Positions 37,695 through 59,897 of a stretch of DNA of 64,000 nucleotides are shown piece by piece. Each line of letters begins with the position of its first letter. Within the stretch, counting starts at the first letter, position 1. The stretch lies in assembly GCA_043823065.1 (NCBI GenBank), contig JBDRBB010000008.1, positions 159,355 to 223,354 on the forward strand, read 5' to 3'. Source of the stretch: Pseudomonadota bacterium (GTDB taxonomy: Bacteria; UBA10199; 2-02-FULL-44-16; DYJF01). Below the pieces are notes generated by a model. It worked only from the letters and a program-made list of their open reading frames with translations. It had not been told where the DNA came from and made no database searches. The position numbers were made by a program, and so were the translations under genes.

Positions 37695-37780
37695 GGTTCT
37701 CGACAAGCTCGAACAATAAAGAGCATCAAATATTCTTCGAGCGAGTCTCTCGACTTTGCTCGAGACGAGTCGAGAAGATA
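37695..37780. repeat. Mosaic palindromic intergenic repeat (family copy A: GTTCTCGAC…CTCGAACAATAA…TATTCTTCGAGCGAG…GTCGAGAAGAT) between murC and murB
   Basis: Shares the TTCTCGAC / CTCGAACAATA / TATTCTTCGAGC / GTCGAGAAGA blocks with copies at 38727, 41833, 47818, 55019-55706, 57084 and 59833. Confidence 0.7.
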
Positions 37781-37784
37781 ACCA

Positions 37785-38728
37785 ATGACGCTAACTGGAA
37801 AACAACAAGAGAAGTTACAGGAAATAGCCCAAGATTGTGTGCTTTTTGAAGAAAGGCTGGCCAAATATTCAACCATTCAAATTGGCGGGCTGGTTGATGC
37901 TTTAGTAACGCCTGCCAATTTGGATATGCTCAAACAAGTTTTGAATTGGGCCAAGCAGGAAAGGATTCCCTATTTGTTTTTAGGAGCAGCTAGCAATACC
38001 TTAATTCGCGATGGTGGTTTTAGGGGAATTATTCTGCGCCTGAAAAAAGGTTTTGATCAAATAGAAGTGATTAATCAGGCTGGGGAGGATGTTTTTATCA
38101 GCGTTGGCGCGGGCCTTTTTACTGCTACTTTGGTGCAGTTTGCTGCGGAAAATGGTTTTGCTGGCCTGGAATTTTTAGCCGGAATTCCAGGTTGTGTGGG
38201 TGGTAATGTGCTGACCAATGCTGGTACTAATGAATCTTGCGTTGCTGATGTGTTAGATGAAATTTCTGTGGTAGATCGTTCGGAAAAAGAAATGAGCCTC
38301 AAACGCAAGGCCTTGGATTTTTCTTATCGCAACTTGAAGCTGGCCAGATCTACCGCAGTTATTAAAGCAGTTTTTAGATTAAAAAAAACAGATCCAGAGC
38401 AGGTGCGACACGCTGTGGAAAAGTTAATTGAAAAACGCAAACAAAGTCAGCCCTGGGGTAAATTAAGTTTAGGCTGTGTATTTAAAAACCCGATTGCTGG
38501 TAAAGGTAAAAAGAATTTAAGCGCGGCAAGTTAATTGATGAGTTGGGTTTAAAACAGGTGCGTGTTGGCCAAGCCAGGGTTTCAGAAAAACATGCTAATT
38601 TTATTATTAATGAAGGTGGGGCCACAGCGCGCGATGTTGAGGTTTTAATGGGGTTGATCAAGGAAAAAGTCAAACAGCGTTTTGGCTTAAATTTAGAACC
38701 AGAGATAGGGATAATAGGAGAGATCTAG
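37785..38728 (+). CDS. murB: UDP-N-acetylenolpyruvoylglucosamine reductase, reading frame broken by an apparent -1 frameshift (ORFs 37785..38534 and 38543..38728)
   Basis: First ORF has the MurB FAD-binding domain. The downstream -1 frame reads …RGKLIDELGLKQVRVGQARVSEKHANFIINEG…, the conserved MurB C-terminus. Both frames are open across 38510-38534. Confidence 0.7.
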
Positions 38729-38781
38729 TTCTCGAGGCGCTTCGCTTACTCGAACAATATTGTTCGAGCTTGTCGAGAACA
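38727..38781. repeat. Mosaic palindromic intergenic repeat (copy B) between murB and ddl; near-perfect 55-bp palindrome
   Basis: AGTTCTCGAGGCGCTTCGCTTACTCGAACAATATTGTTCGAGCTTGTCGAGAACAAG. The core CTCGAACAATATTGTTCGAG is a perfect palindrome. Confidence 0.75.
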
Positions 38782-38794
38782 AGAAAGGGCTCAG

Positions 38795-39733
38795 ATGCTT
38801 AATAAGTGGAAAGATAAAAAAATTGCAGTGCTAATGGGTGGTCAAACAAAAGAGCGGGAGATCTCGTTAAAAACAGGCGCAGCCATTAGCAAGGCCTTGA
38901 ATAAATTAGGTTACCAAGTCGTAGATATTGATGTTGGTAACGATTTGGTAGAAAGATTGAGGAAAGAAAATATCCAGGTGGCGTTTATTGCTTTACATGG
39001 CAAGTTTGGTGAAGATGGTTGCGTGCAAGGGTTACTTGAAATGTTACGCATTCCTTATACCGGCACTGGTGTTATTGGCTCAGCAATTGGCATGGATAAG
39101 ATTATTTGTGACATGGTGGCCAAACAGCTGGATATTCGTCTGCCTAGGGAACAGTTTTTTTATTTTAATCATGAACCTAAAGAGACAATTGTTAAAAAAG
39201 TTGAAATTGATTTGCCTTTAGTGGTGAAGCCAGCCAGGGAAGGCTCAACCATTAATCTTAGTATTGTGCGCCAGCCCGAAGAACTTGAGCCGGCGATTAT
39301 CACAGCAGCCAAATCAGATAATAAAATTATTATTCAGGAATATATTGCCGGCAAAGAAGTTACTGTTGGTTTGCTTAACGGCCAAGCCCTGCCAGTATTG
39401 GAAATCGTGCCTAAAAGCGGTTTTTACGATTATACTTCAAAATACACTAAAGGCCTGACTGAATATATTGTGCCAGCGCGCATTTCGGAAAAATGCGCAG
39501 AAAAGATTCAAAAATGGAGTGCTGATATATTTAAGGCCTTGGAGGGCTCAGGCGTGGCGCGTTGCGATTATATTATAGATAAAAATGATCAGGCCTATTT
39601 TTTAGAGATTAACACTATTCCAGGCATGACCGAATTGTCATTGGTGCCTAAAGCAGCTGCCCATATAGGTATCAGCTTTGAACAATTAGTGGAGCAAATA
39701 TTAGACGCAGCAGCGCTAAAGGTGAATATATAA
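38795..39733 (+). CDS. ddl: D-alanine--D-alanine ligase
   Basis: ATP-grasp fold. N-terminal motif (HG.FGEDG) and C-terminal E-N (FLEINTIPGMT) motif. Confidence 0.85.
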   Translation: MLNKWKDKKIAVLMGGQTKEREISLKTGAAISKALNKLGYQVVDIDVGNDLVERLRKENIQVAFIALHGKFGEDGCVQGLLEMLRIPYTGTGVIGSAIGMDKIICDMVAKQLDIRLPREQFFYFNHEPKETIVKKVEIDLPLVVKPAREGSTINLSIVRQPEELEPAIITAAKSDNKIIIQEYIAGKEVTVGLLNGQALPVLEIVPKSGFYDYTSKYTKGLTEYIVPARISEKCAEKIQKWSADIFKALEGSGVARCDYIIDKNDQAYFLEINTIPGMTELSLVPKAAAHIGISFEQLVEQILDAAALKVNI

Positions 39734-40569
39734 TGAGGGGATTTCTTAAAACACAGAATGTAAAGAAAAAGGGGATCGTTGCTAGGCATTTTAGGGCGGT
39801 GGAGCGAATTCTGTTTTCTCTAGCCGTGGTCTTTGGAGGGCTAGCCCTGCTTTATGGTTTATATTTAGTAATTGTGTTTGGTCCATTTTTTAATGTGGAA
39901 AAAGTAATTGTGGCTGGGGAATTAACTCATTTAAATCAAAGCCAGGTGGAGACATTGGCCAAAGTTAGTCCAGGGCAAAAGCTGTTTGGCGTAAACGTGC
40001 AAAAAATGCATTTGAACTTAAAAAAACATCCTTGGGTCAAGCAGGCTACAGTTAGAAGACGGTTGCCAGATACGGTTTGGATTTATATTGAAGAATATCA
40101 GCCAGTGGCCATTTTCATTAATAAGAACAAGCCATATTTTGTGGACGAACAAGGTATTGCGTTTAAGCAAATAGAAGCAGGAGAATCTAAAAATTTCGAA
40201 ATTATTTCAGGATTGAGAAATTTTGAAAATCAGCAAGAATTACAGGCAGAGCTTAAACAAAGTTTGGAACTTATTAGTTTATATAAAAAATCTAAGTTTA
40301 GCCAGATTTTGGGGATTGCAGAACTGCATTATGCCAAGCCATATGGATTTTCTATTATTACAGAAAAAGGCCCGATAGAAATATTTTTGGGAAATAGTTT
40401 TTCCCAGGAAAAATTTCAGATTCTGGATCATTATCCAGGGGTGATTGAACGAGCTCAGGAAAAAATTAGATATATTTTTGCCAATAATGAGAATAGGATT
40501 GCTGTGGGTTATGAGGATGTTTCCCAAGCGGTGTCATTCTCGCGAAAGCGGGAATCCAGTGCGTTATAA
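39733..40569 (+). CDS. ftsQ: Cell division protein FtsQ/DivIB (POTRA domain); the C-terminal 12 aa are encoded by a hairpin repeat
   Basis: Bitopic protein with an N-terminal TM helix, then POTRA-like region. Conserved position before ftsA. The tail VSFSRKRESSAL is encoded by the hairpin-family copy at 40533-40556. Confidence 0.65.
   Translation: MRGFLKTQNVKKKGIVARHFRAVERILFSLAVVFGGLALLYGLYLVIVFGPFFNVEKVIVAGELTHLNQSQVETLAKVSPGQKLFGVNVQKMHLNLKKHPWVKQATVRRRLPDTVWIYIEEYQPVAIFINKNKPYFVDEQGIAFKQIEAGESKNFEIISGLRNFENQQELQAELKQSLELISLYKKSKFSQILGIAELHYAKPYGFSIITEKGPIEIFLGNSFSQEKFQILDHYPGVIERAQEKIRYIFANNENRIAVGYEDVSQAVSFSRKRESSAL
40533..40556. repeat. Hairpin element copy 3 (GTCATTCTCGCGAAAGCGGGAATC, one stem mismatch) forming the 3' end of ftsQ
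   Basis: Same element as 30258 and 33388, here in a different reading frame. The ftsQ stop codon follows immediately. Confidence 0.7.
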
Positions 40570-40602
40570 TTTGATAGCATAAAAATTTTAAGGGGGGTGT
40601 TT

Positions 40603-41829
40603 ATGGCGAAAAAGGATGAGTTTGTAGTGGGGTTGGATATTGGCACAACCAAAATTTGTGCCATTGTGGGAGAAGTTACAGAGGATGGGATCGATGTAGT
40701 AGGAATTGGTTCGCATCCTTCAAAAGGCTTGCGCAAAGGAGTTGTAATCAATATTGACAGCACCGTCTCTTCTATCAAAAGCGCTATTGAGGAGGCAGAG
40801 CTAATGGCTGGCAGCGAGATATCTTCAGTGTTTGCTGGTATCTCAGGAGGCCACATCAAAGGCATCAATAGCCATGGCATTGTAGCTATTAAGAACAAAG
40901 AGGTGTGCCAGGCAGATGTGGAGCGCGTGATTGACGCTTCCCAGGCAGTATCCATCCCTCTGGATAGAGAAGTTATCCATGTTATTCCTCAACAGTATAT
41001 TGTGGATGAGCAAGACGGGGTAAGAGATCCTATTGGAATGAGTGGGGTTAGATTAGAGGCCAGAGTGCACATTGTTACAGGCGCGGTTACCTCTGCCCAA
41101 AATATTATTAAATGCTGTAATCGGGCAGGGCTTAATGTGAATGATATTATTTTGCAACAACTGGCTTCCAGCGAGGCATCTCTGACCATAGATGAAAAAG
41201 AGTTGGGCGTGGTTCTGGTGGATATAGGCGGCGGTACCACAGATATTGCTATTTATTCTAATGGCAGCGTGACCCACACTTCTGTGCTGGCTATCGGTGG
41301 CAACCATTTAACCAATGATATTGCTGTGGGGTTGCGCACACCAGCGCATGAAGCAGAAAGAATTAAGCTAAAGTATGGTTGTGCCATGGCTGGTATGGTG
41401 CACAAAGATGAAACCATTGAGGTGCCATCAGTTGGCGGCCGGAATCCCCGCGTGCTTTCTCGCCAAATCTTAGCTGAAATTGTGGAGCCGCGCATGGAAG
41501 AGGTTTTCACTTTAGTGCAGCAAGAAATTGTGCGTTCTGGTTGTGAAGACATGATTGCAGCTGGAGTGGTTTTAACCGGCGGCACGTCAGCCATGGAAGG
41601 TGTTCCAGAATTAGCTGAACAGGTTTTTAATTTGCCAGTTCGTCGCGGAGTGCCCAAAGGCATTGGTGGTTTGGTGGATGTGGTAAGAAGCCCAATTTAT
41701 GCCACAGGAGTTGGTTTGGTCCAAGTGGGCAGCAAATGCACAGATAGCAAGCGTTTTAAGATTAAAGATAAAAATATCTATTCCAAGGTTAGAGGAAGAA
41801 TGAAAGAGTGGTTGGGGGAAATGTTTTGA
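40603..41829 (+). CDS. ftsA: Cell division protein FtsA
   Basis: Actin-fold motifs (VGLDIGTTKI, DIGGGTTD). AGGGGGG RBS before ATG 40603. Confidence 0.85.
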   Translation: MAKKDEFVVGLDIGTTKICAIVGEVTEDGIDVVGIGSHPSKGLRKGVVINIDSTVSSIKSAIEEAELMAGSEISSVFAGISGGHIKGINSHGIVAIKNKEVCQADVERVIDASQAVSIPLDREVIHVIPQQYIVDEQDGVRDPIGMSGVRLEARVHIVTGAVTSAQNIIKCCNRAGLNVNDIILQQLASSEASLTIDEKELGVVLVDIGGGTTDIAIYSNGSVTHTSVLAIGGNHLTNDIAVGLRTPAHEAERIKLKYGCAMAGMVHKDETIEVPSVGGRNPRVLSRQILAEIVEPRMEEVFTLVQQEIVRSGCEDMIAAGVVLTGGTSAMEGVPELAEQVFNLPVRRGVPKGIGGLVDVVRSPIYATGVGLVQVGSKCTDSKRFKIKDKNIYSKVRGRMKEWLGEMF

Positions 41830-41832
41830 TTA

Positions 41833-41893
41833 GTTCTCGACTCGCATGAGCTCGCTCGAACAATAATAGTCTTCGAGCGTAGTCGAGAAGATG
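41833..41893. repeat. Mosaic palindromic intergenic repeat (copy C) between ftsA and ftsZ
   Basis: AGTTCTCGACTCGCATGAGCTCGCTCGAACAATAATAGTCTTCGAGCGTAGTCGAGAAGATGATC. Confidence 0.7.
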
Positions 41894-41921
41894 ATCAACT
41901 TAAAAGATAAAGGGGGGTAAA

Positions 41922-43238
41922 ATGTTTGAACTTGTCGAAAATAACTTAGCACCAAATGCAAAAATTAAAGTGGTTGGTGTAGGCGGTGGCGGTGGTAATG
42001 CTATTAATACCATGATGGATCTTTATATTGATGGTGTGGATTTTATTGCAGCAAATACAGATATTCAGGCTTTAAGAGTAAATTCTGCTTCAACCAAAAT
42101 TCAATTAGGCAGAGAATTGACCAAAGGATTGGGTGCAGGAGCAAATCCAGATGTTGGTAAGAATGCAGCCTTAGAAGATCAGCGTTGTATTGTCGAGGCT
42201 CTGCAAGGAGCAGACATGGTATTTATTACTGCTGGTATGGGTGGCGGTACAGGTACTGGCGGGGCGCCAGTAATTGCCAAGTTAGCCAAAGAAATGGGCG
42301 CCTTAGTTGTGGGTGTGGTAACCAGACCCTTTGCTTTTGAAGGCAGGCATCGTTCTTTGCAAGCAGAAAGAGGGATTGCGGAGTTGCGCGATAATGTTGA
42401 TACCTTAATTACCATTCCCAATGAAAAATTGCTAACATTGGTTGGTCATGATGTTACTGTGGTTAATGCTTTTCAACGCGCCGATGAGGTTTTGCATCAA
42501 GCAGTAAAAGGCATTTCAGATTTAATAACCGTGCATGGTTTGATTAATTTAGATTTTGCTGATGTCAGAACAGTAATGAATGAAATGGGTATGGCTTTGA
42601 TGGGAACTGGCGAATCTTCAGATGAAGATCGGGCTATTGATGCAGCTGCCAAAGCTACTTCTTCGCCACTTCTGGAAGATATGTCGATTAAGGGCGCTAC
42701 GGGCATCTTAATCAATATCACAGGTGGACCAGATATGACCTTGCATGAAATCAACGAAGCTTCCAAAATTATTCAGACCGAAGCCCATGATGACGCCAAT
42801 ATTTTGTTTGGCGCAGTGATAGATGAAAAAATGGAAGGTAGAGTAAGGGTAACCGTGATAGCCACTGGTTTTAACAAGCCTTTGCATAAGTCTGCTAAAA
42901 ATCAGGTTACAGCAGCAAAAACAAATACTGTTTCCACTGTGGCTAATGTGCCCCCACCAATGCAGCAAATAAAATCGCAAACCTGGTCTGCTCCGCAAGT
43001 TGCTCCAGCCAGTTCTGGCAGTCATTTCATGTCCAGCAGAATGCATGGCAACTATCCAGTAGGAGCTATGCGCAATGCTCCAGGCGAAGGGCATTTTCAG
43101 GTCAGCACAGACTTGCCTTTAGCTAAAGCAGCTCTGATCAGTGAAAACAAGGATTTGGGGTTGGAAACTGCAATTATGTCGGAATATAGCGAGGATGAAT
43201 ATGATATCCCAACTTTTTTGCGTAAACAGGCAGATTAA
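41922..43238 (+). CDS. ftsZ: Cell division GTPase FtsZ
   Basis: GGGTGTG tubulin signature, a long disordered linker and a conserved C-terminal peptide (DIPTFLRK). Confidence 0.9.
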
Positions 43239-43314
43239 TGATTTTTTGAGCAACATTTTGGCAGAAGGGGCGATAACATTTTATAGTAGGTAAACCAAAA
43301 TAATAAGGGGTCAC

Positions 43315-45273
43315 ATGAGATTCAAACATATCTTTGCCTTAATAATAATCATCGCTTTTCTTGGAGGCTGTGCCAAAGATCATTATAGTTCAAGATATAA
43401 GAGCGTTGATGAAAGAAAGCGTTATGCCAAAGAGCATAACCTGAACCGTCTGCCCCCTTCAGACGTTCCTCTGGTGATGAATGAAAGAGTTATTGCCTGG
43501 CTGGAATATTTTCAGGGTCGTGGTCGCGATCATATGCAGCGTTATTTGGAGCGATCAGGGCGTTATATTGATTTAATGCAGGATATCTTGCGCCAGAATA
43601 ATTTGCCCGAGGATTTGATTTACGTGGCCTTAATTGAAAGCGGTTTTAATGACAATGCTTATTCCAAAGCGCATGCTGTTGGCCCCTGGCAGTTTATCAG
43701 AGGTACTGGCAAACGTTATGGATTGGTAATCAATAATTGGCTGGATGAAAGACGCGATCCAATCAAGGCTACCTGGGCTGCTGCCAAATATTTGCAAGAT
43801 TTATATAATGAGTTCGGCGATTGGTATCTGGCCATGGCTGGCTATAACGCTGGTGAAGGCAAGGTGAGAAAAGTAATCAAAAGTTCAGGCACCAAAGATT
43901 ATTGGGAAATAGTGGAAGGGGGGCGGGAATATTTTAGGGCAGAAACCAGGGATTATGTTCCTAAATTTATTGCAGCAGCGATTATTGCCAAAACCCCGGA
44001 AAACTTTGGATTTAAGAATTTGGAATATGAATCTCCCCTGGATTATGAAGTGGCGCCAGTTGATACCCAAACAGATTTAAAAGTTATTGCTGAATGTGCA
44101 GGAATCTCTCATGAAGAGGTTGTTAGGTTAAATGCTCATTTGGTTGGTGGTACTACACCTCCTAATGTTAGTGATTATTTGGTCAAATTACCAGTTGGCA
44201 CAACCGAAGTATTTAAGGAAAAATACGCGGCAGTGCCCCAAAGCGAGCGAATTCTCATTGTTTATCATAAAATCAGGCGTGGAGATACCATTGGTACTAT
44301 TGCCAATCGCTATGGTGTTTCTGCCAACGCGCTTTTAAGCGCTAACGATATTCCCTATAGCAAAAGAAATCGTATTAGTGTGGGGCGCACTTTGGTAATT
44401 CCCAAGAACGGCCAGGCTAGATCTGCCCAGCTATCTGAGGCTAGTGTCAAAACCCCAAGAAATTCTTCATCCGTACCAGCTTCAACTGGTGTGCCCAAAA
44501 AACATAAGATCAGGTCTGGTGAAACTTTATGGTCGATTTCTAAAAAATATGGTGTTCCAGTAAGGGAATTGATGGCTTTGAATAATCTGGATTCATCATC
44601 CAGGATTCACGCTGGCAAGACCATTGTTATAAGTCGGCCGCCCAGAACAGTGAAAACATCTGCGCCAATTGTGGCCAATGGCAGCACGCATACTTTGCGA
44701 CGTGGCGAAACATTGGGCCAGGTGGCTGGAAAATACAGGGTAAAGCTTTCCCAATTGATGGCCTGGAACAATATTGAAAATCCTAGCAGGGTGAAAGCTG
44801 GTCTGGTTCTAACCATTAGTGATCCAGGAGAAACTGTGCCTAGGGCAACCAACGCGCCTGTGAGCTCGGCCCAAACCCACAAGGTTGCCAAAGGCGAAGC
44901 CTTGGTTTTAATTGCCCGCAAATATGGTGTGACCGTGCAAGAATTGATGGCCTGGAATAATATTAAAGATCCTAGAAGCGTGCGAGCTGGCCAGATATTA
45001 AAAGTGCAAAAGGCAACTGCTGGCCAAACGCCAACATCAGATTCTCCCAATGTTGTGGCAGCTCCAGTTGTTGCGCCTATAACTGAAGATTATATCAATG
45101 CCAATAATGGTCATAGTCCATCATCGTTTAATTACCAGGTCAAACCTGGAGATACTTTGTGGGATATTGCCAGACGCCATAATGTTACTATTTCCGATAT
45201 TCAAACCTGGAACAATCTAAGCGATCCGTCTCAAGTGCGGCCAGGGGATATGTTGGCGATTAAAAGGAAATAG
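43315..45273 (+). CDS. mltD: Membrane-bound lytic murein transglycosylase D-like lipoprotein (SLT domain + five LysM repeats)
   Basis: Lipobox FLGGC. SLT catalytic region (ALIESGFN…GPWQF). Five ~45-aa LysM-like repeats in the C-terminal half. Confidence 0.75.
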   Translation: MRFKHIFALIIIIAFLGGCAKDHYSSRYKSVDERKRYAKEHNLNRLPPSDVPLVMNERVIAWLEYFQGRGRDHMQRYLERSGRYIDLMQDILRQNNLPEDLIYVALIESGFNDNAYSKAHAVGPWQFIRGTGKRYGLVINNWLDERRDPIKATWAAAKYLQDLYNEFGDWYLAMAGYNAGEGKVRKVIKSSGTKDYWEIVEGGREYFRAETRDYVPKFIAAAIIAKTPENFGFKNLEYESPLDYEVAPVDTQTDLKVIAECAGISHEEVVRLNAHLVGGTTPPNVSDYLVKLPVGTTEVFKEKYAAVPQSERILIVYHKIRRGDTIGTIANRYGVSANALLSANDIPYSKRNRISVGRTLVIPKNGQARSAQLSEASVKTPRNSSSVPASTGVPKKHKIRSGETLWSISKKYGVPVRELMALNNLDSSSRIHAGKTIVISRPPRTVKTSAPIVANGSTHTLRRGETLGQVAGKYRVKLSQLMAWNNIENPSRVKAGLVLTISDPGETVPRATNAPVSSAQTHKVAKGEALVLIARKYGVTVQELMAWNNIKDPRSVRAGQILKVQKATAGQTPTSDSPNVVAAPVVAPITEDYINANNGHSPSSFNYQVKPGDTLWDIARRHNVTISDIQTWNNLSDPSQVRPGDMLAIKRK

Positions 45274-45282
45274 AATATTCTT

Positions 45283-47148: not shown

Positions 47149-47150
47149 TG

Positions 47151-47798
47151 CTAGGATATGGTGAATCTGAATTTAATAGCTGAAATTAAATAAAGAAAAA
47201 TACGTTTTAGGTCTGTGTTTTTGGATGTACCTGTCTTTCGAGTAGCGTAAAAATAAGGTATTTCAGCAATACGCTTAAAGCGATTATGCCGCATATATTC
47301 CAAACTCCATTCAGTATTGCCTTGTTTTTGGTAATTAAAACATTCTTTTTTAGAAATAATAAAGCCACCTGTAATTTCTTTTGATCTAACTCCCAGAATA
47401 CAAGACATAATCAGATTATAAATACGGAATAAATAGTAACGGAACTTATCTTCCATGCCTCCGCCGGCAGCAAATCTGGAGAATTTAATTATATCAACTA
47501 AATCTTGTTCTACTAAACTGCGGCAACGCAGCATTTTAAGTGGGTGAGAAAAATCAGCATCCATAATTGCCACAACTTCGTGGGAAGCAGCTTTAACTCC
47601 ATCATACACCGCAGTGCCACAACCAAGTAACCCTGGTCTCTGAATAACTTTGCATTCAAATGAGTTAGCTACTTGAACGGTCTCATCAGTGCTGGCATCA
47701 TCAACCACGACAATTTCATCACATTCATTTTTGAGTTGTGGTAAAAGAATTTTTAAGTTCGTGGCTTCATTAACTGTGGGTACAATTACGCTTAGCAT
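47151..47798 (-). CDS. Family-2 glycosyltransferase (polyprenyl-phosphate sugar transferase-like)
   Basis: MLSVIVPTVNEATNL…VVDDASTDET is the GT2 N-terminal signature. Length is 215 aa. Confidence 0.7.
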   Translation of the reverse strand: MLSVIVPTVNEATNLKILLPQLKNECDEIVVVDDASTDETVQVANSFECKVIQRPGLLGCGTAVYDGVKAASHEVVAIMDADFSHPLKMLRCRSLVEQDLVDIIKFSRFAAGGGMEDKFRYYLFRIYNLIMSCILGVRSKEITGGFIISKKECFNYQKQGNTEWSLEYMRHNRFKRIAEIPYFYATRKTGTSKNTDLKRIFLYLISAIKFRFTIS

Positions 47799-47817
47799 AG
47801 TTCCCTTTTAAAAATTT

Positions 47818-47882
47818 AGCTTTCGAGTTTATCGAGAAACTAAATTTTTGCTTCTCGACTCGCTTGCGCTTGCTCGAAGGAT
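47818..47882. repeat. Mosaic palindromic repeat (copy D) between two same-strand glycan genes
   Basis: TTTCGAGTTTATCGAGAAA … CTTCTCGACTCGCTTGCGCTTGCTCGAAGGATATA. Confidence 0.55.
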
Positions 47883-47893
47883 ATATGTAACCA

Positions 47894-49508: not shown

Positions 49509-49522
49509 TGTATTCTCCTGAT

Positions 49523-50620
49523 TTAATCTTCGAGCTTCTTCATACCTTTTTGAATATGTTCTATGATATACTCCATTTCTTTGTTAGTCATTATGTAATA
49601 CATGGGCAAACATAGCACGTGTTTGGCAACTCTTTCAGCAACTAGGCATCTTTGTTTTTTAAATTGCTGATAGGGTTTTTGATCATAAATTGGCAAAGGC
49701 CAGGAAACATTAGTGCTAATGCCTTGTTTGGCTAAATAAGCGCGCAGCTTGTCTCTTTTTTCAACTAAGATTGGATATAAGAACCAAGCATGTTTGTTTC
49801 CTTTAGCAACTTGAGGCAGGATTAATCCAGAAAGTTTCTTAAGCTGTTTTGTATAAAAACTGGCAATATTTGCTCGCTTAGCCAAAAGTTTATTTAAGCG
49901 CTTGGCTTGAGCCAAGCCAAATGCTGCTCCTAATTCAGTCATTCTATAGTTATGGCCCAATAAAGGATGATGATATTTATGTGATAAATCTTCACCTTGA
50001 GAGCGAATAATGTGCATCTGATCTCGCCAACTTGCTTTGTTTGTAAATATCATGCCGCCCTCAATAGTGGACATAATCTTGGCTGCATGAAAGCTGGTAA
50101 TGCTAATATCACCCAGCGAACAAAGCTTTTTTCCGTCTTGCGCGCCGCCTAAGCCTGGTGCGGCATCTTCAACAATAGGGATATTATAAGCTCTGGCAAT
50201 CTTTCTCAATTTTTTATAATCAGGTCCTTGGCCAGCATAATCAACAGCTATGATGCACTTAGTCTTCTTGGTGATTTTTTGGGCTACATCTTCAGGATCA
50301 ATGGTGTAAGTAATAGGATCTATATCACAAAAAACCGGGGTTGCTCCCTGATATAGAATGCAACTAGCGCTGGCAATATAGGTAAAGGCAGGTACAATTA
50401 CTTCATCTTGGGGCTGAATTTTAAGAATCTTAAGCGCAACATCTAGTGCTGCAGTGCCAGAATTTACAGCAACTGCGTATTTTGTTTGCACAAATTGCCG
50501 CATTTTTTCTTCAAACTGAGCAACACGAACACCTTGGCTGAGCTGACCTGATTTTACAGCTTTAATGACTTCATTTAATTCAGTTTTATCTAGATATAAA
50601 TTGGCCCAAGGTATTTTCAT
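49523..50620 (-). CDS. DegT/DnrJ/EryC1/StrS-family PLP-dependent sugar aminotransferase
   Basis: Family fold with a catalytic Lys region (SFHAAKIMST). Length is 365 aa. Confidence 0.8.
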   Translation of the reverse strand: MKIPWANLYLDKTELNEVIKAVKSGQLSQGVRVAQFEEKMRQFVQTKYAVAVNSGTAALDVALKILKIQPQDEVIVPAFTYIASASCILYQGATPVFCDIDPITYTIDPEDVAQKITKKTKCIIAVDYAGQGPDYKKLRKIARAYNIPIVEDAAPGLGGAQDGKKLCSLGDISITSFHAAKIMSTIEGGMIFTNKASWRDQMHIIRSQGEDLSHKYHHPLLGHNYRMTELGAAFGLAQAKRLNKLLAKRANIASFYTKQLKKLSGLILPQVAKGNKHAWFLYPILVEKRDKLRAYLAKQGISTNVSWPLPIYDQKPYQQFKKQRCLVAERVAKHVLCLPMYYIMTNKEMEYIIEHIQKGMKKLED

Positions 50621-50622
50621 AA

Positions 50623-51825: not shown

Positions 51826-51998
51826 ACTTCCCCTAGTTAAAAGAGTGTATATACAAAAGGAGCAATGGAAGAACTTTCTGCAAACACTAGCAATAAACCA
51901 AATAAAAACAAGACAATGATTATTGGCATCAGCCAAAATTTCTTGCGAATTTTTAAGAATTCCCAAAGATTAATAAATAACTGTTTCATATTTATCTC

Positions 51999-52436
51999 CT
52001 AAAATAATTTTTCCACATTTCCGGAGCCCATTGTTAAACCCTTTTCTTGCCAGGATGATGATTGTTTTCCGCGCGCAAAAACATCCAGGCCATTGCGGCC
52101 AATCAATTTAAGAATGAGACCTACAGGCATAAAAATAATTATATAAGCCAAGCCCATAAATACATATTTATTAATCCAGATGACAACCTTGCTGACTTTT
52201 TGGCTAAACCAGAACAAGGGTGACAATATTTGAGGACGAATAAGCGTAAGAAGTAAAACTAATAGACAAATAAGTAAGATGATAAAGACAGCTTGAAAAA
52301 GACCAAGTTTAAATAAGATTAAGCTGGCAATTACTAAAACTAGGCTCAAACTTAAGCCATAGTTAATCAAATCTTGTTGTTTATCATTCATATTTTTAAT
52401 CAAGCTCCACTTGAAAATCTTTTTCTTTTTGGTCAA
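51999..52436 (-). CDS. Small polytopic membrane protein (possibly SxtJ-like partner of the carbamoyltransferase)
   Basis: Three predicted TM helices. Overlaps the carbamoyltransferase 3' end. An alternative start at 52391 removes the overlap. The family assignment is a guess. Confidence 0.35.
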   Translation of the reverse strand: MTKKKKIFKWSLIKNMNDKQQDLINYGLSLSLVLVIASLILFKLGLFQAVFIILLICLLVLLLTLIRPQILSPLFWFSQKVSKVVIWINKYVFMGLAYIIIFMPVGLILKLIGRNGLDVFARGKQSSSWQEKGLTMGSGNVEKLF

Positions 52437-54216: not shown

Positions 54217-54295
54217 AGCCTCATAAGATATCATTTAATCAGTAGTTGATCAATTTTGTTTTTACTCTTTTTGTCTAAAATAGTAAATTATAGGC

Positions 54296-55054
54296 ATGAT
54301 AGAGCTTAAAAATGTCAAAGCCTGTTTATTTGCCGGTGGATTGGGCACTAGATTACGGAAAGTAATAGCTGATCGTCCCAAACCCATGGCTGAGGTGCAA
54401 GGACGACCTTTATTAGAATATGTAATGCTGCATTTGGCCAAGCAGGGGATCAAACAGTTTATTTTCTCCATTGGTTATTTGGGGGAAATGATTGAGGCTT
54501 ATTTTCAAGACGGAGCAAAATGGGGAGTTAAAATAGAATATGTTAGAGAAAAAGAATTGCTAGGCACTGGGGGTGGACTTTTGCTGGCCAAAGATTTGTT
54601 TTCAGAACCAGCAATTATTGGTAATGGCGATACGCTTTTAGAAATTAATGTGGTTGAGCTGTTGAAGTTTCATCAAGAAAATAAAGCTGATTGGACCATA
54701 GCAGTTAGGCTAGCCCAGCAGGAAATAAATGATCCTATGGGAAAATTTATAGTAAATGATCAGGGCCAGATTCTTAAATTACAAAAAGATGGTCTAAAGC
54801 AAAAAGGGGAATATATTAATGGGGGCACATATTGTGTTTCCCCCAATATCCTTGATAGCCTGAACCCCAAAGAAGTTTGTTCTCTGGAAAAAGATTTATT
54901 GCCAGATTTAATGGATAGAAATGCCAAGTTGTTTATTTTTCCAACCCAAGGATTTTTCTGCGATATCGGCACTCCTGATGATTATCAAAATCTCTGTAAA
55001 ACCGGTGTGCCTGTTGAATATTATTCTTCGAGCGAATCCGCCAGAAGCGGATAA
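54296..55054 (+). CDS. Sugar-phosphate nucleotidyltransferase (HddC-like D-glycero-D-manno-heptose-1-phosphate guanylyltransferase candidate); the C-terminal tail is encoded by a repeat
   Basis: GGLGTRLR nucleotide-binding motif. About 230 aa of NTP_transferase fold. gmhA and gmhB lie nearby. The last ~12 codons (EYYSSSESARSG) fall within repeat block E. Confidence 0.6.
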   Translation: MIELKNVKACLFAGGLGTRLRKVIADRPKPMAEVQGRPLLEYVMLHLAKQGIKQFIFSIGYLGEMIEAYFQDGAKWGVKIEYVREKELLGTGGGLLLAKDLFSEPAIIGNGDTLLEINVVELLKFHQENKADWTIAVRLAQQEINDPMGKFIVNDQGQILKLQKDGLKQKGEYINGGTYCVSPNILDSLNPKEVCSLEKDLLPDLMDRNAKLFIFPTQGFFCDIGTPDDYQNLCKTGVPVEYYSSSESARSG

Positions 55055-55224
55055 GTCGAAGGGGCCCCCAAAGATATTCTTCGAGACCCCTAATATTCTT
55101 CGAGCTGGTCGAGAAGAATAGATTGGTTCTCGATGCGCTTCGCTTACTCGAACAATAATGGGGGGTGACCCCTAATATTCTTCGAGCGAGGTCGTAGGCC
55201 GAGCGAGAAGGGTGAGGAAATAAT
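55019..55224. repeat. Composite mosaic repeat block E upstream of the GIY-YIG gene
   Basis: Contains hairpin AATCCGCCAGAAGCGGAT, two GACCCCTAATATTCTTCGAG units, CTGGTCGAGAAGAATAG and GGTTCTCGATGCGCTTCGCTTACTCGAACAATAAT. The stretch 55098-55200 is ~95% identical to 55587-55706. Confidence 0.75.
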
Positions 55225-55497
55225 ATGCCAGAACAGTGGAAATGGTATGTATATATTGTCGAATGCCAGGACGGCACTTATTATACTGGTTGTACTTGGA
55301 ATGTGGAAAATAGGCTTGAACAGCATATTTCTGGCTTGGGCGCAAAATATACAGGCAAACATGGTGTAAAAAGATTAGCTTATTATGAGGAACATGATGA
55401 TTTAGAAGTCGCCAGAAAACGTGAAAAACAGATAAAGAATTGGAGGCAAGAAAAAAAGAAGAAGTTAATCAAAGGTGAGTGGGGAAAGGAATGGTAA
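55225..55497 (+). CDS. GIY-YIG nuclease-superfamily protein (small stand-alone YhbQ-like domain)
   Basis: YVYIVECQDGTYYTGCT…NRLEQH…GAKYT…VKRLAYYE carries the GIY-YIG core residues. Length is 90 aa. GGTGAGG RBS. Confidence 0.75.
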   Translation: MPEQWKWYVYIVECQDGTYYTGCTWNVENRLEQHISGLGAKYTGKHGVKRLAYYEEHDDLEVARKREKQIKNWRQEKKKKLIKGEWGKEW

Positions 55498-55706
55498 AGG
55501 TTCTCGACTTCGCTCGAACAATAATAATCGGGACCCCCTAATATTCTTCGAGACCCCCTAATATTTTTCGGGACCCCCTAATATTCTTCGAGCTGGTCGA
55601 GAAGAATAGTATTGGTTCTCGATGCGCTTCGCTTACTCGAACAATAATGGGGTGACCCCTAATATTCTTCGAGCGAGGTCGTAGGTCGAGTCGAGAAGAA
55701 TAGACT
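55498..55706. repeat. Composite mosaic repeat block F downstream of the GIY-YIG gene, including 3 tandem ~20-bp units
   Basis: GGTTCTCGACTTCGCTCGAACAATAATAAT, then three ACCCCCTAATATTCTTCGAG-type units (55532-55592), then the same ~110-bp segment as block E. Confidence 0.75.
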
Positions 55707-55758
55707 AAACATTTTCATATAGACAGATATTTAACAAAAATGTATAATATGTGTCTGT

Positions 55759-56370
55759 ATGAAACAAAAACCAGATAATCTGAAGCTTCTAGAGTCCTTT
55801 AGTCTGGACTTAAAAGGAGTTTTTACTTTAGCTGATCTAAGGGGAATATATCCAGATAAGCATACTCTTACTTTTTATAGAAGGATTAAGAGCTTAGAAA
55901 AAGATGGAATTTTGACTAGAGTGTTAAAGAGTATTTATGTTTCTAAATCTTTTGATATTGATGTTTTGAGTCAAAAAATTTGTCCAAATTCTTATATAAG
56001 TTTTGAAAATGTTTTGGCCAAGGAGTTGGTTATTGGCACAGTGCCAAAAAATTCAGTTCGTGCCGCAAAAAAGGGTAAAAAAAGAGAATATAAGTTTGAT
56101 GCTAAAAAAATTATACATTTAGGTCTTGCTACCCATCTTTTTTTTGGTTTTAAAACTAGACAAGGTGTTAATTATGCTACCAAAGAAAAAGCATTCTTAG
56201 ATACGCTTTATTTTTATAACAAAGGGGTTAGATTTTATTTTGATATTTTTTCTGATATTAATCTAGAACAATTAAACATCAAGCTGATACATAAATATCT
56301 TAAAAAATATAAAAATCCCAAGTTTATTAATTTTGTAAAAAATTATTTAAATGAACATTCCTTTTCCTAA
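55759..56370 (+). CDS. AbiEi-like antitoxin / transcriptional regulator (type IV TA)
   Basis: 203 aa with an N-terminal wHTH-like region (LADLRGIYPDKHTLTFYRRIKSLEKDGILTRV). It overlaps the downstream nucleotidyltransferase gene by 20 nt. The region is AT-rich. Confidence 0.45.
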   Translation: MKQKPDNLKLLESFSLDLKGVFTLADLRGIYPDKHTLTFYRRIKSLEKDGILTRVLKSIYVSKSFDIDVLSQKICPNSYISFENVLAKELVIGTVPKNSVRAAKKGKKREYKFDAKKIIHLGLATHLFFGFKTRQGVNYATKEKAFLDTLYFYNKGVRFYFDIFSDINLEQLNIKLIHKYLKKYKNPKFINFVKNYLNEHSFS

Positions 56371-57103
56371 AAATTTGTCGCAAGATTCATTGTTTGCTTG
56401 GCTCATGCATAGAATTTCCCTGGAGTTTCGTGAGCATGCTATTTTAAAAGGTGGCATGTCTTTTAGATTGGTTAATTCTCCCAGAAGCACTAATGATCTA
56501 GATTATGTTTTTGTGCCATTTAAATCAAAAAAGGAAATTGCTCCTGTTTTAGAAAAAATTGTTTCAGAAATTCCCAGCGCCAAAATAACTAGATCCATGC
56601 ATTCCACTGCTTTGCGCCTAAATATTTCTGTAGAAGATGTTAATGTTCAACTTGAAGCTGATATTGCCATGAATTGTAAATCAGCACCCATGTCCACCAG
56701 TGCTTTAGCCAGCAAGGTTGATCAACTAAGTCAGGTGATTAGGATTATGAGTTTTGATGTGGCCTTGTCTCATAAGTTGGCAGCTTGGAATGAAAGAAGG
56801 TTATTAAGAGATTTATATGATGTTTATTATTTATATAAAGTGGTTGGAGTTGTTCCTGATAAAGACACTCTTTTGTCTAGGTTGGATCAAATTAATTCAC
56901 GCATTCCCAGCCTTAAAAACAGGAAGAAAATGAAAATGTCTGAGTTCTTGGCTGAATTAAAAAAAGCAGCAGATGAGATAACAGAGCAAAAGCTGGAAGA
57001 AGAGTTGGCGCCGCTTTTAAATCTTAATGAATTGCCGGGATTGGCCATTAAGCTTCGAACAAGCATAAATGAGTTGGTTGCATATATTCTTCGAGCTGCT
57101 TGA
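56351..57103 (+). CDS. AbiEii/AbiGii-family nucleotidyltransferase toxin (DUF1814-like)
   Basis: N-terminal motif ILKGGMSFRL…RSTNDLDYVF matches the pol-beta-type hG[GS]…[DE]h[DE] NTase signature of AbiEii. The C-terminal tail YILRAA is encoded by a repeat. Confidence 0.6.
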   Translation: MNIPFPKNLSQDSLFAWLMHRISLEFREHAILKGGMSFRLVNSPRSTNDLDYVFVPFKSKKEIAPVLEKIVSEIPSAKITRSMHSTALRLNISVEDVNVQLEADIAMNCKSAPMSTSALASKVDQLSQVIRIMSFDVALSHKLAAWNERRLLRDLYDVYYLYKVVGVVPDKDTLLSRLDQINSRIPSLKNRKKMKMSEFLAELKKAADEITEQKLEEELAPLLNLNELPGLAIKLRTSINELVAYILRAA

Positions 57104-57111
57104 GAAGAATA
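57084..57111. repeat. TATTCTTC-N11-GAAGAATA inverted-repeat element (copy G) at the island/gmhA boundary
   Basis: ATATTCTTCGAGCTGCTTGAGAAGAATA differs at 2 positions from the block E/F core ATATTCTTCGAGCTGGTCGAGAAGAATA. Confidence 0.7.
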
Positions 57112-57127
57112 AGAGGAGGATTTAATT

Positions 57128-57706
57128 ATGAATCATAACAAACTTATCACGCAAAGACTAAATGAAACCGCAGAACTTTTAAGCTCTTTTTCGCCAGAGC
57201 TGATTGCTGAAATTAGCGCTGCTGCGCAAACTATCATTTCTGCCCTAAAAGCTGGCAACAAAGTGCTTCTGGCTGGCAATGGTGGGTCTGCTGCAGATGC
57301 CCAGCATATTGCTGGCGAGCTAGTGGGAAAGTTTTATAAAGATCGCGATCCTTTGCCAGCTATAGCCTTGCATACCAATTCTTCAATTATTACGGCTTTG
57401 GCCAATGACTATGGTTATGAAACTGTTTTTGAAAGACAGGTTAAGTGTTGGGGAAAAAAAGGGGATGTGCTAATTGGTCTTTCCACCAGCGGCAAGTCTC
57501 CTAATATTTTGAGAGCTTTTGATGTTGCCAAAAAACAAGGATTAAAAATTATTGCTTTTACTGGCGCTAAAGGACTGCCTTCTGGATATAAGCCAGATCA
57601 TCTAATAAATATTTCTGCAACAGATACCCCACGCATTCAAGAAGCCCATATTACCATAGCGCATATAATTTGTGAGATAGTGGAGAGCCAAATATTTGGG
57701 AGGTAG
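57128..57706 (+). CDS. gmhA: Phosphoheptose isomerase (SIS domain)
   Basis: LLAGNGGSAADAQHIAGEL…STSGKS is canonical GmhA. AGGAGGA RBS. Confidence 0.8.
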   Translation: MNHNKLITQRLNETAELLSSFSPELIAEISAAAQTIISALKAGNKVLLAGNGGSAADAQHIAGELVGKFYKDRDPLPAIALHTNSSIITALANDYGYETVFERQVKCWGKKGDVLIGLSTSGKSPNILRAFDVAKKQGLKIIAFTGAKGLPSGYKPDHLINISATDTPRIQEAHITIAHIICEIVESQIFGR

Positions 57707-59368
57707 ATGAAGCTTTTGTATTCCCTACGCCAGCATCTTGTTTTTTTACTATTAATAACCATTGCTACTTATCTAATGGTTAAGGGGCTTGGGTTTAATC
57801 AATATGGTGGAGATGAATCAACAACCGCCATTTACGCCAGAAATATTTTAAAATTTGGAGTTCCTACAGCTTGGGATGGACAAAATTTGTTAGCTGCAGG
57901 CAATGGATCTGAGTTAAATGAGAATTTGATAAATGCCCATATCCCTTGGCTGCACTATTATCTAGTTGCTGGTTCGTTTTGGTTTTTTGGAGATAATGTT
58001 ATTGCAGGTCGCCTGCCTTCTATCTTATTTGCTTTAGCAACAATTGCCTTAGTTTACCTGTCGATCTTGCGTCTAACTCAAGACAAGTTAATTGCCAATC
58101 TTTGTACTTTGATTATATCCCTTTCACCAAGTTTTTTGCTTTATGCGCGGTATTGTCGGTACAATGCTTTGGTTATGTTGCTGGCTATGTTGATTTTTTA
58201 CATAATTTCTTTTTCAAATTTATCCTCAAAAAAAAGAATTTTTTGGTTATCGGTTTTAGTTGCCTTACTTTTTTACGCTAATTATTTGATCGCTGCTTGT
58301 TTGATTGTAGCTGGTTTTCTGATATTTTTTATTTTTTATTTTGATGAAAAAAAGATGGAACAATATCTGCTGGCAAGTGTGCTGGGATTTTTAGCTTTCT
58401 TGCCCTGGTTGATAATCTTAAATCCCTTTAATCTTGGTTTGCTGGGCAGTGCAGCTTATTGGGATAGGAAGGCGATAACTTATTTTGAGACATTTTATTA
58501 TTATTTAAGACTTTTTAATTCGGAAAATTTATTTCCAGTAGTTTTGCTGATTATCTTTTTAATTTATTTTTTCAGAGAGAAACAGCAAGATTTTAAAAAA
58601 TGTTGCTTAGCGCTATTTGCCTTTTGTCTTTGCTATACATTTTTAATTACCAGTTTAACTGGTAGCACGTTAACCTCTAGATATCTTTCTGTTCTGATTC
58701 CTTTTTTGGCAATTATTTCACCTATTATTTTGGTTAGGGGTTTGCAGAAAAGGATTTTGTGGATTCCTGTGGCTCTACTTTTGATATTTACAGATTTTTT
58801 GAGCTTGCCCCTATTATTAAAATCAGGATCTGGAATATTTGCTATTTCTAAAAATGTAGCTGCTGGGAACCGGTTTCCTCTAGCTGGTTATCTTTATGAA
58901 ACTCATCGAGATTTTCCACGCAGTGTAGATGTGGCCAAAGATTTATTGAGAAAGCATACAAAAAAGGATGATGTGCTAGCTGTAATAAATCCTGATTTTG
59001 CTTATCATCTATTTGATGATTTTGCTGATAGCTTGAAGTTTTGTTGTCAGCTGGAAATGGGGAGCCACCTTGATTTAGAAAAACTCAAACAAGAATTGCC
59101 TAGCTATGTATTCACAGATGAAACAGTGCCAGATTGGATACTTGTTTTTGGACTGCACTGGAAGCCCTTGCCTGAATACTTAAAACAATGGGAAGACCTG
59201 GGGATTAAATATAAGTTGATTGATAAATCAGATGTGTTTTGGTTTCAGGGGGGGCATCCAGAATTGCTAGCCCATATTTTTTATCCTGTAACTTCTCATG
59301 ATTCTAACCGTTATGGAGTTTATTTACTGAAAAAAGAGACAGGAAAAAATAAAAATGAAAAAAAATAA
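57707..59368 (+). CDS. GT-C-type polytopic membrane glycosyltransferase (ArnT/PMT-like)
   Basis: About 11 TM helices with a periplasmic loop after TM1. The fold class is inferred from topology only. Confidence 0.45.
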   Translation: MKLLYSLRQHLVFLLLITIATYLMVKGLGFNQYGGDESTTAIYARNILKFGVPTAWDGQNLLAAGNGSELNENLINAHIPWLHYYLVAGSFWFFGDNVIAGRLPSILFALATIALVYLSILRLTQDKLIANLCTLIISLSPSFLLYARYCRYNALVMLLAMLIFYIISFSNLSSKKRIFWLSVLVALLFYANYLIAACLIVAGFLIFFIFYFDEKKMEQYLLASVLGFLAFLPWLIILNPFNLGLLGSAAYWDRKAITYFETFYYYLRLFNSENLFPVVLLIIFLIYFFREKQQDFKKCCLALFAFCLCYTFLITSLTGSTLTSRYLSVLIPFLAIISPIILVRGLQKRILWIPVALLLIFTDFLSLPLLLKSGSGIFAISKNVAAGNRFPLAGYLYETHRDFPRSVDVAKDLLRKHTKKDDVLAVINPDFAYHLFDDFADSLKFCCQLEMGSHLDLEKLKQELPSYVFTDETVPDWILVFGLHWKPLPEYLKQWEDLGIKYKLIDKSDVFWFQGGHPELLAHIFYPVTSHDSNRYGVYLLKKETGKNKNEKK

Positions 59369-59861
59369 GGCAATTTTTTTGGATCGGGATGGAACTCTCA
59401 ATTATGATCCAGGTTATTTAGATGATCCGGATAAATTAAAACTTTTACCAGGGGTGGGTGAAGGGCTAAAGATCTTGCAAGATGCAGGGTTTAAGCTAGT
59501 TGTCATAACCAATCAGGCTGGCATTGGCCGGGCTAAGTTTACAGAAAAGACGCTCCAGAAAATCCATGAGCGTCTAAAAGAGTTGCTTAAAGCTTACAGC
59601 GTAGAACTTACAGCTATCTATTATTGTCCTCATCATCCAGATGAAAACTGCAATTGCCGCAAACCAAAAACAGGTATGGTAGACCTGGCAGTTAGAGAGC
59701 ATAATCTTGATTTGAAAAAGTCATTTGTCATTGGGGATGATAAATGTGATCAGGTCTTGGCCAAGAATCTAAATTGTCCTTTTGTTGAGGTTGGTGGAGA
59801 TGAGTTTAAGAATATAAAGGAAGCTGCAAATTATATTCTTCGAGCTGGTCGAAAAGAATAA
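59355..59861 (+). CDS. gmhB: D-glycero-D-manno-heptose 1,7-bisphosphate phosphatase (HAD family)
   Basis: FLDRDGTLN motif I and a Zn-binding CPHHPDENCNCRKP motif. The C-terminal tail YILRAGRKE is encoded by repeat copy H. Confidence 0.8.
   Translation: MKKNKAIFLDRDGTLNYDPGYLDDPDKLKLLPGVGEGLKILQDAGFKLVVITNQAGIGRAKFTEKTLQKIHERLKELLKAYSVELTAIYYCPHHPDENCNCRKPKTGMVDLAVREHNLDLKKSFVIGDDKCDQVLAKNLNCPFVEVGGDEFKNIKEAANYILRAGRKE
59833..59860. repeat. TATTCTTC-N11-GAAGAATA element (copy H) overlapping the gmhB 3' end
   Basis: ATATTCTTCGAGCTGGTCGAAAAGAATAA. Confidence 0.7.
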
Positions 59862-59865
59862 ATAA

Positions 59866-59897
59866 AAAAGCCGCCCAATTGGGCGGCTTTTTTTCTG
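59866..59897. terminator. Bidirectional rho-independent terminator between convergent gmhB and a secreted-protein gene
   Basis: AAAAAAGCCGCCCAATTGGGCGGCTTTTTTT: a perfect 9-bp GC-rich stem flanked by an A-run and a T-run. Confidence 0.75.

Follow-up and report, generated by a model that had tools for sequence, protein, structure and literature searches.

Few non-coding features of bacterial genomes are as common as REP-type repeats (repetitive extragenic palindromes). To our knowledge, only the REPs that carry a GTAG tag have a known partner enzyme, the RAYT protein. For REPs tagged with CGTC, TGTC or CCTC, Di Nocera et al. 2013 (PMC3733652) state that they "apparently lack a dedicated transposase" and that transposase genes do not occur in association with them. 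Among small nucleases, UPF0213 proteins of the 1ZG2/1YWL type are members of the minimal Slx1-like group of prokaryotes described by Dunin-Horkawicz et al. 2006 (PMC1564403), and a possible role in DNA repair has been considered for stand-alone Slx1-like GIY-YIG nucleases (PMC1564403, PMC1839093). The subject here is a stretch of 64,000 nt from contig JBDRBB010000008.1 of a metagenome-assembled genome (MAG) labelled as a Pseudomonadota bacterium; this whole stretch is referred to as the window. Its main repeats are a mobile non-coding palindromic family of the REP/REPIN/BIME kind (BIME, bacterial interspersed mosaic element), and they are accompanied by a gene for a minimal GIY-YIG nuclease. 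With a probability of about 0.6, the two are read as a REPtron-like system, in which mobile REP-like repeats travel with a cognate Slx1-like GIY-YIG nuclease that would act on the folded repeats.

The GIY-YIG gene and the repeats around it

The unit of the main family occurs in two orientations, R (TATTCTTCGAGC-insert-GTCGAGAAGA, with an insert of 0 to ~50 nt that is usually a small hairpin) and L (GTTCTCGAC-insert-CTCGAACAATA), L being R inverted. Eight solid repeat loci were located in 22 kb of the window, every one in a gap or at a gene end, and they are given here together with the nuclease gene and two isolated blocks:

37696..37781, plus strand: L-R doublet that fills the murC-murB gap, with L at 37696-37720 and R, with a nested hairpin, at 37731-37778
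38728..38781, plus strand: L-R doublet that fills the murB-ddl gap, overlapping the murB stop codon by one base (the first of the doublet); its inner 20 bp are a perfect palindrome
41833..41891, plus strand: L-R doublet in the ftsA-ftsZ gap
47820..47883, minus strand: degenerate R-spacer-L pair between two minus-strand genes (Pfam), in the same orientation as both
55019..55224, plus strand: upstream mosaic array in the order R, R', R, L, GGGG-TGA-CCCC module, R
55225..55497, plus strand: 90-aa open reading frame (ORF) for a stand-alone GIY-YIG nuclease of the Slx1/YhbQ/UPF0213 type (Pfam PF01541, E 7.5e-17)
55498..55706, plus strand: downstream mosaic array, with L 2 nt past the stop codon, then R', R, L, GC module, R
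57084..57114, plus strand: R singlet that overlaps the AbiEii ORF at its 3' end, with the in-frame reading ..YILRAA* (ORF part 57084-57103)
59833..59863, plus strand: R singlet that overlaps a HAD-phosphatase ORF at its 3' end, with the in-frame reading ..YILRAGRKE* (ORF part 59833-59861)
49524: single block inside an ORF, without a partner block
62736: single block inside an ORF, without a partner block

The two largest arrays of the window (55019-55224 and 55498-55706) flank the 90-aa ORF, which the original prediction had missed and which is the only GIY-YIG gene in the window. The GIY-YIG domain covers residues 6-78 of 90, with no room for a second domain, and the closest solved structures are the UPF0213 proteins 1ZG2 (phmmer E 1.2e-14) and 1YWL (E 1.5e-9); as a single domain of ~90 aa similar to these two, the protein belongs with the Slx1-like/UPF0213 group (COG2827). 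It has neither the separate DNA-binding domain nor the intron, intein or phage site of homing endonucleases of the I-TevI type. In block notation the arrays read cccdabc and abccdabcd, the alternating-orientation mosaic clusters of REP/BIME elements, and the last R of the upstream array, 14 nt upstream of the GIY-YIG start codon, is changed in its d block (GAGCGAGAAGG). On both sides of the gene lies a ~117-nt direct repeat (55086-55203 and 55574-55690) with one substitution and two small indels between its copies; in the gene-proximal copy, the last R unit lacks one T in the GTCGAGAAG block. At ~8 other loci, the gene-proximal R unit is a variant, TTCGACC..GTGGAGAA, that is changed in the TCGAG cores. 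No RAYT, Y1 or other transposase was found in the 50 window ORFs scanned with Pfam, a scan that left aside the rest of the dcw (division and cell wall) genes and ORFs <80-100 aa, while a few ORFs at the 3' end of the window were searched with NCBIfam only. NCBIfam held no name for the nuclease and no PHROG match was obtained for it; a role as a component of a defence system was set aside as unsupported, the nuclease having no PADLOC match.

Close homologues of the nuclease (58-82% identity) were gathered from a genome scan (loci L006, L008 and L086), from metagenomes (L119-L141) and by protein look-up (L207, from Daviesbacteria, and L211, from Omnitrophota). Nearly all of them have an R-type unit upstream of the start and an L-type unit downstream of the stop, or doublets on both sides, and the density of repeat blocks at ≤150 nt from these genes is 17.9/kb compared to 1.17/kb elsewhere in the same loci, a 15-fold difference. 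The neighbouring genes are unrelated in 19 of 22 non-redundant loci. Those close homologues that could be named come from Patescibacteria, Daviesbacteria, Kerfeldbacteria, Omnitrophota and the source MAG, the groups that carry the repeats, and most lie on contigs of 0.5-3 kb, as expected beside repeats. Between pairs of homologues, the proportion of nonsynonymous differences (pN, 0.10-0.29) is far below that of synonymous differences (pS, 0.75-1.0), for which sites are saturated, indicating purifying selection on the GIY-YIG protein; since the flanking 10-12-nt blocks are identical over the same divergence, the blocks are constrained too. Decayed gene copies also occur, with an in-frame stop at L119 and frameshifts at L086.

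Distant homologues (42-49% identity) are flanked by another type of palindrome, (C/T)GTC-AT…-loop-…AT-CCA. Among homologues of ≥58% identity, 18 of 20 have at least two TCGAG-type blocks within 200 nt and 0 of 20 have CGTC/TGTC tags within that distance; among those of ≤49% identity, the corresponding values are 2 of 53 and 51 of 53. Overall, the type of repeat corresponds to the clade of the protein. The two flanks share an inverted repeat (score ≥13) at 30 of 52 loci, compared to 2 of 185 control windows in the same loci (p = 9e-19). A strict regular expression for tagged hairpins caught 12 of 52 upstream CGTC-type units, missing most because many carry long inserts, and the alignment-based inverted-repeat test together with the tag count is more informative. 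Judged by their sequence, the palindromes at the distant homologues match the CGTC/TGTC/CCTC-tagged REPs of Di Nocera et al. 2013 (PMC3733652). Examples from cultured bacteria include a "GIY-YIG nuclease family protein" of Shinella sp. HZN7 pShin-01, with doublets of CGTC-ATCCTCGGG-CTTGA-CCCGAGGAT-CCA on both sides, and a GIY-YIG gene of S. meliloti Ak57 with flanking CCTC-type doublets. C. crescentus, a CGTC-positive species (PMC3733652), has three small COG2827 genes (PMC1839093).

Repeats of the tagged kind are present in the window itself, where a second family, TGTC-ATTCCCGC-GAAA-GCGGGAAT-CCA, fits the CGTC-1 REP definition of Di Nocera 2013 (PMC3733652):

30258-30290, plus strand: second-family copy in the 5' part of the murF ORF
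33389-33450, plus strand: second-family doublet, an in-frame insertion inside murD
40532-40564, plus strand: second-family copy that forms the ftsQ 3' end (FtsQ of 278 aa, compared to 259-264 aa in relatives)

The insertion in murD (33389) adds ~15 residues and a divergent stretch, neither of which is present in MurD of relatives.

Several further observations concern the surroundings of the nuclease gene. All main-family copies lie within ~18 kb of it and the first 37.7 kb of the window are empty of them despite several intergenic gaps of 100-330 nt, a clustering for which local spread and chance are both possible reasons. A third small module (GGGG-TGA-CCCC, or GGGACCCCC, then TAATATTCTTCGAG) is repeated within both arrays (55159-55174, 55648-55661 and 55530-55580) and is partly arranged as 20-nt tandem units. 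Directly downstream of the GIY-YIG cassette is an AbiEi/AbiEii toxin-antitoxin (abortive infection) pair (55759-57103), preceded by a strong promoter-like TAGACA-17-TATAAT (55720-55748) and ending inside an R singlet. At L211, the Omnitrophota contig (1256-4015), a UDP-glucose dehydrogenase gene stands beside an L-R doublet and, by the precomputed Pfam list, contains an intein with LAGLIDADG matches.

Anatomy, distribution and insertion of the repeats

The blocks of the main family are strongly enriched in the window relative to dinucleotide shuffles, both as exact matches (GTTCTCGAC, 4 occurrences, 0.06 expected) and with ≤1 mismatch (CTCGAACAATAAT, 9 and 0.07; TATTCTTCGAGC, 18 and 0.16; GTCGAGAAGA, 9 and 1.4). 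A fuzzy scan that needed two partner blocks gave 27 matches compared to 2.0 in shuffles, with 0 upstream of 37695. The loci named by the original prediction are all real, and its copies sit exactly in the murC-murB, murB-ddl and ftsA-ftsZ gaps, the genes being named by Pfam (murC 36321-37691, murB 37785-38728 (frameshifted), ddl 38795-39733, ftsQ 39733-40569, ftsA 40597-41829 and ftsZ 41922-43238). Its count of at least nine loci was too high, as eight are solid and the single in-ORF blocks at 49524 and 62736 are probably chance. The R singlets at 57084 and 59833 apparently supply the C-terminal tail and the stop codon of the upstream ORFs. Directly 3' of the second of these (59864-59893) is a 13-bp GC-rich hairpin with A and T runs on its sides, which looks like a genuine bidirectional terminator between convergent genes.

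The repeat units, at ~25-60 nt, are short, imperfect, multicopy and extragenic palindromes, as REP/BIME elements generally are, and the commonest form is the L-R doublet (51-116 nt; median, 78 nt over 60 distinct doublets from other genomes). The consensus of these 60 doublets is (ta)G-TTCTCGA-CT…(t)CG-CTCGAAC-AATAT-TCTTCGAG-CGA…(g)AG-TCGAGAA-G(a), with conservation dropping directly outside the ends G-TTCTCGAC and GTCGAGAA-G and a terminal unpaired G..G that is invariant (39 of 39 doublets). The termini are inverted, T/A preferences in the flanks are weak, no consistent target-site duplication is seen there, and the ends of the main family carry neither a GTAG nor a CGTC/TGTC/CCTC tag, the tags of the REP superfamily of Di Nocera 2013. 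Among 118 other loci, counted from the matches listed, block order was L-R in 61, R alone in 39, R-L in 21 and nested in 14, in addition to longer arrays. This pattern of alternating singlets, doublets and mosaic arrays is that of REP, REPIN and BIME elements, and the proposal of a dispersed BIME/REP-like mosaic family is borne out.

In the predicted single-strand fold of the doublet, an outer 9-bp stem (TTCTCGACT/AGTCGAGAA) encloses an inner stem of 9-10 bp (GCTCGAA/TTCGAGC) with variable side hairpins, and the inner stem has a conserved C·C mismatch next to the loop, with GAACAA opposite TTCTTC (61 doublets of this form). Inverted-unit doublets of this sort are able to form a long hairpin, as REPIN-RAYT doublets are, and the folds of the window copies are more stable than those of shuffles (z -2 to -3.9; z -3.9 for the doublet at 37696-37781, with an outer GUUCUCGAC/GUCGAGAA stem). 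The blocks had been described as mutual reverse complements forming hairpins, which holds in that L is R inverted and the doublet folds; what did not hold is full symmetry, for the blocks favour one strand (TTCTTCGAG has 10 plus-strand and 0 minus-strand occurrences in the window) and the arms differ at one conserved position. Likewise, the copy at 38727, described as a near-perfect 55-bp palindrome, consists instead of a perfect 20-bp centre (CTCGAACAATATTGTTCGAG) and 9-bp outer arms with unequal loops (12 and 3 nt), and perfect-palindrome versions of the doublet are essentially absent from the census in other genomes.

The inner hairpins include 45 distinct stem strings, most commonly with a 3-nt loop, suggesting that structure is kept while sequence is free; the stem-extension pair is T-A in 19 cases, C-G in 6 and T·G in 7. 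Half-sites are spaced 1-60 nt apart. A dominance of GAA triloops, which would favour DNA hairpins, was considered and dropped, such triloops making up 7 of 65 inner-hairpin loops. The G·T and A·C mismatches (16 and 7) are too few for inferring a functional strand and, because L is R inverted, compensatory changes in the arms cannot tell base pairing from copying.

Using an exact-match scan of one genome per species with the pattern TATTCTTCGAGC-N(1-30)-TCGAGAAGA, the main family was found in at least 118 stretches of other genomes, compared to ~8 chance matches by our own estimate from information content, so that the blocks are not confined to the window. Most matches were in Omnitrophota, including a single-cell genome, and one MAG gives at least 20 loci among the matches listed. 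Others were in Saccharibacteria, Roizmanbacteria, Levybacteria, Doudnabacteria, Uhrbacteria and further Patescibacteria, as well as in a Gammaproteobacteria MAG, Auribacterota, Planctomycetia and others; a few isolated in-gene matches of the scan resemble chance. With main-family blocks and 64-82%-identical genes in Omnitrophota, several phyla of the candidate phyla radiation (CPR) and the source lineage, the distribution is not that of lineage-specific vertical inheritance. One contig of the viral collection has the repeat pattern, and carriage by phages was set aside on this one match and the missing PHROG match of the nuclease.

At the dcw cluster, three relatives labelled Deltaproteobacteria were compared, L201 and L202 (FtsZ identity 73-74%) and L199 (FtsZ identity 83%). 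In L201 and L202, murC and murB overlap by 4 nt (ATGA), the murB-ddl gap is 0-5 nt, the ftsA-ftsZ gaps are short, and zero repeat blocks were found in 21 kb of each. In L199, the murC-murB gap contains one degenerate related element, the murB-ddl gap is taken up by palindromes of another family, and the ftsA-ftsZ gap is free of elements. Identical sequence at all these gaps in related genomes, which would have indicated conservation, was not what the three relatives had; as element presence differs at orthologous gaps, the window copies are lineage-specific insertions rather than conserved operon signals. They are probably recent insertions, and they would owe their survival to a position precisely after one stop codon and ahead of the ribosome-binding site that follows.

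Two observations from the same comparison stand apart. Palindromes of a GTCATT…AATGAC type (tGTCATTGTGAG…GCAATCC, GTCATTGCGAGGAG…) occupy gaps in the relatives (for example L199 2000-2130 and 6465-6560) and also adjoin the main family in Omnitrophota loci (flanks of L041, L069, L088 and L100), suggesting that several REP-like families coexist and nest in these genomes. In the window, murB is split by a frameshift at 38520-38535, with the first piece (37785-38534) stopping early after MurB_C positions 1-32 and the second (38528-38728, in another frame) encoding MurB_C positions 37-99; one G seems to have dropped out of a GCGGG run, either by an assembly error or because this essential gene has become a pseudogene.

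Explanations for the association

In the REPtron-like reading, the nuclease would recognise the repeats in their folded or cruciform state, much as Slx1-type enzymes do with branched DNA, and would nick them, with repair or replication of the resulting breaks spreading or homogenising the units. Such a process would be analogous to that of RAYT with REPINs, using a different catalytic fold. Structure-specific activity on branched or hairpin DNA is known for the eukaryotic Slx1-Slx4. The anatomy of the repeats, their insertion polymorphism, their spread across phyla, the conserved arrangement of gene and repeats and the pairing of clade with repeat type are observed; binding or nicking of the folded repeats by the nuclease, driving their spread or homogenisation, is what we infer.

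Several points weigh against this reading. A unit is missing on one side of the gene in L126, L138, L139 and L207, and 114 of 118 repeat-bearing 8-kb stretches, among the matches listed, have no GIY-YIG gene nearby. The R-gene-L layout could equally be explained by homing of the gene into repeats or by accumulation of repeats beside the gene. We know of no strand transfer or ligation by GIY-YIG nucleases, which only cut, and a pathway of transposition is therefore not obvious; binding of main-family sequences by the protein is a prediction. The taxon labels are those of MAG bins and can be wrong. Finally, the ORF calling behind the orientation count was crude. In that count, which addresses the check for strand bias relative to genes that the original prediction had proposed, 62 copies between co-directional genes of other genomes are on the gene strand and 24 opposite; in the window, 8 copies are co-oriented with the flanking genes and 0 are not.

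A wider extension of the reading, in which minimal Slx1-like GIY-YIG nucleases are the dedicated partners of a second, RAYT-independent REP/REPIN world that takes in both the TCGAG-core repeats and the CGTC/TGTC-tagged REPs of Alphaproteobacteria and others, is offered tentatively and is rather less probable than the reading itself. The R-gene-L cassette, at ~350-450 bp, would then spread by structure-specific nicking and repair rather than by transposase chemistry.

The best-surviving rival, though an unlikely one, is that the GIY-YIG gene is a free-standing parasite resembling a homing endonuclease, which cuts an empty R-spacer-L site and is copied in by repair with the repeats as homology arms, the repeats themselves being old or spread by something else. 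It would account for the position of the gene exactly at the spacer of R-spacer-L units, which also exist empty (spacers of 3-15 nt), for the near-identical 117-nt direct repeat around the window gene and for the altered TCGAG cores of the gene-proximal R (~8 loci, with the loss of a T in the window), as expected of a site immune to cutting; GIY-YIG is also a classic fold of homing endonucleases (PMC1564403). However, the protein has just 90 aa, without the separate DNA-binding domain that homing enzymes use, and there is one gene copy among the eight repeat loci of the window, where efficient homing should fill many. Homing also leaves the mobilisation of repeats into new sites, such as the dcw gaps, unexplained.

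Less probable again is that the elements are mainly RNA-level signals, acting as stabilising 3' hairpins, RNase processing sites or attenuators that tune operons such as dcw. The co-orientation with flanking genes is in line with this, as are the predicted RNA folds that beat shuffles and the position of the copies, which start 0-5 nt past stop codons and often end 5-15 nt ahead of a start codon; REPs of E. coli affect 3' untranslated regions. Yet the proposed function of the dcw copies as terminators did not stand up, because no T run follows any dcw copy and none was called terminator-like, the only terminator calls near the repeats being the GGGG-TGA-CCCC module of the arrays and the unrelated hairpin at 59864-59893. 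Rfam gave no family for the whole window at gathering thresholds or for 54900-55800 at E up to 10, and a known structured RNA or ribozyme was accordingly discarded as unsupported; a tRNA scan found none. In the relatives, genes overlap or abut at the same junctions without the elements, so the operon does not need them, and neither identical 10-12-mers across phyla nor linkage to a nuclease gene is predicted by a host regulatory signal. An RNA-level role is a possible side effect of the elements, since the copies are biased in orientation and lie at stop and start codons.

It is highly improbable that a host DNA-binding protein (gyrase, a nucleoid protein or a regulator) uses the blocks as binding sites, with palindromes reflecting dimer binding. 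The blocks are short palindromes with TCGA cores at their centre, and E. coli BIMEs bind IHF and gyrase according to a passage of PMC2817692, but the half-site spacing is very variable, the inner hairpins are structured, the copies are presence/absence-polymorphic, and the same sequence in unrelated phyla would need the same binding protein.

Comparison with known repeat systems

No paper joining GIY-YIG with REP, RAYT or REPIN was found in the literature searched, the coverage of which is incomplete, so that an earlier description is possible; a literature search by sequence string returned chance primer matches only. New are the TCGAG-core units, their spread across phyla and, above all, the consistent association with a minimal GIY-YIG protein, which reaches the "orphan" CGTC REPs. 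The clade-specific association offers a concrete and cheaply testable partner candidate for both the main family and the CGTC REPs. If the association is functional, it would assign a role to the widespread YhbQ/UPF0213 family and, in the wider extension of the reading, the R-gene-L cassette would rank with the smallest autonomous selfish units that bacteria are known to carry. A functional association would also explain the repeat-broken metagenome assemblies of Omnitrophota and CPR and the presence of repeats within essential operons, even in murD. For annotation, ORF extensions and spurious genes made by repeat elements are flagged.

The closest described systems are REP/BIME elements and the REPIN-RAYT systems (REPtrons) of Proteobacteria, with which the main family shares short imperfect extragenic palindromes in alternating singlets, doublets and mosaic arrays, one protein gene between inverted units and a repeat type that co-varies with the clade of the flanked gene. 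Unlike in REPIN-RAYT, the flanked gene encodes a GIY-YIG protein (PF01541 only) rather than a HUH/Y1 tyrosine transposase, and the GTAG tag is absent; moreover, REPIN-RAYT systems are described as vertical and lineage-specific, whereas the main-family sequence is common to Omnitrophota, CPR and a proteobacterium-like lineage. The CGTC/TGTC REPs (PMC3733652) are matched by the second family of the window and by the repeats that flank the distant GIY-YIG homologues, and the in-gene copy in murD has counterparts in the copies inside genes reported for these REPs. The main family differs from them in having no tag, no AT-starting stem and no CCA tail, with TCGAG cores and a variable insert instead; the CGTC REP paper (PMC3733652) reports no associated transposase and does not mention GIY-YIG. 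Miniature inverted-repeat transposable elements such as Correia and RPE are also small and non-coding, with terminal inverted repeats, and lie between genes or sometimes in frame within them. In contrast to these, the 50 window ORFs scanned gave no insertion sequence with a DDE transposase as a parent of the main family, whose only linked gene lies between units, inside-out relative to the doublet. The nuclease itself, a 90-aa single PF01541 domain, is like the stand-alone Slx1-like proteins E. coli YhbQ, B. halodurans BH0048 (1ZG2) and E. faecalis EF2693 (1YWL).

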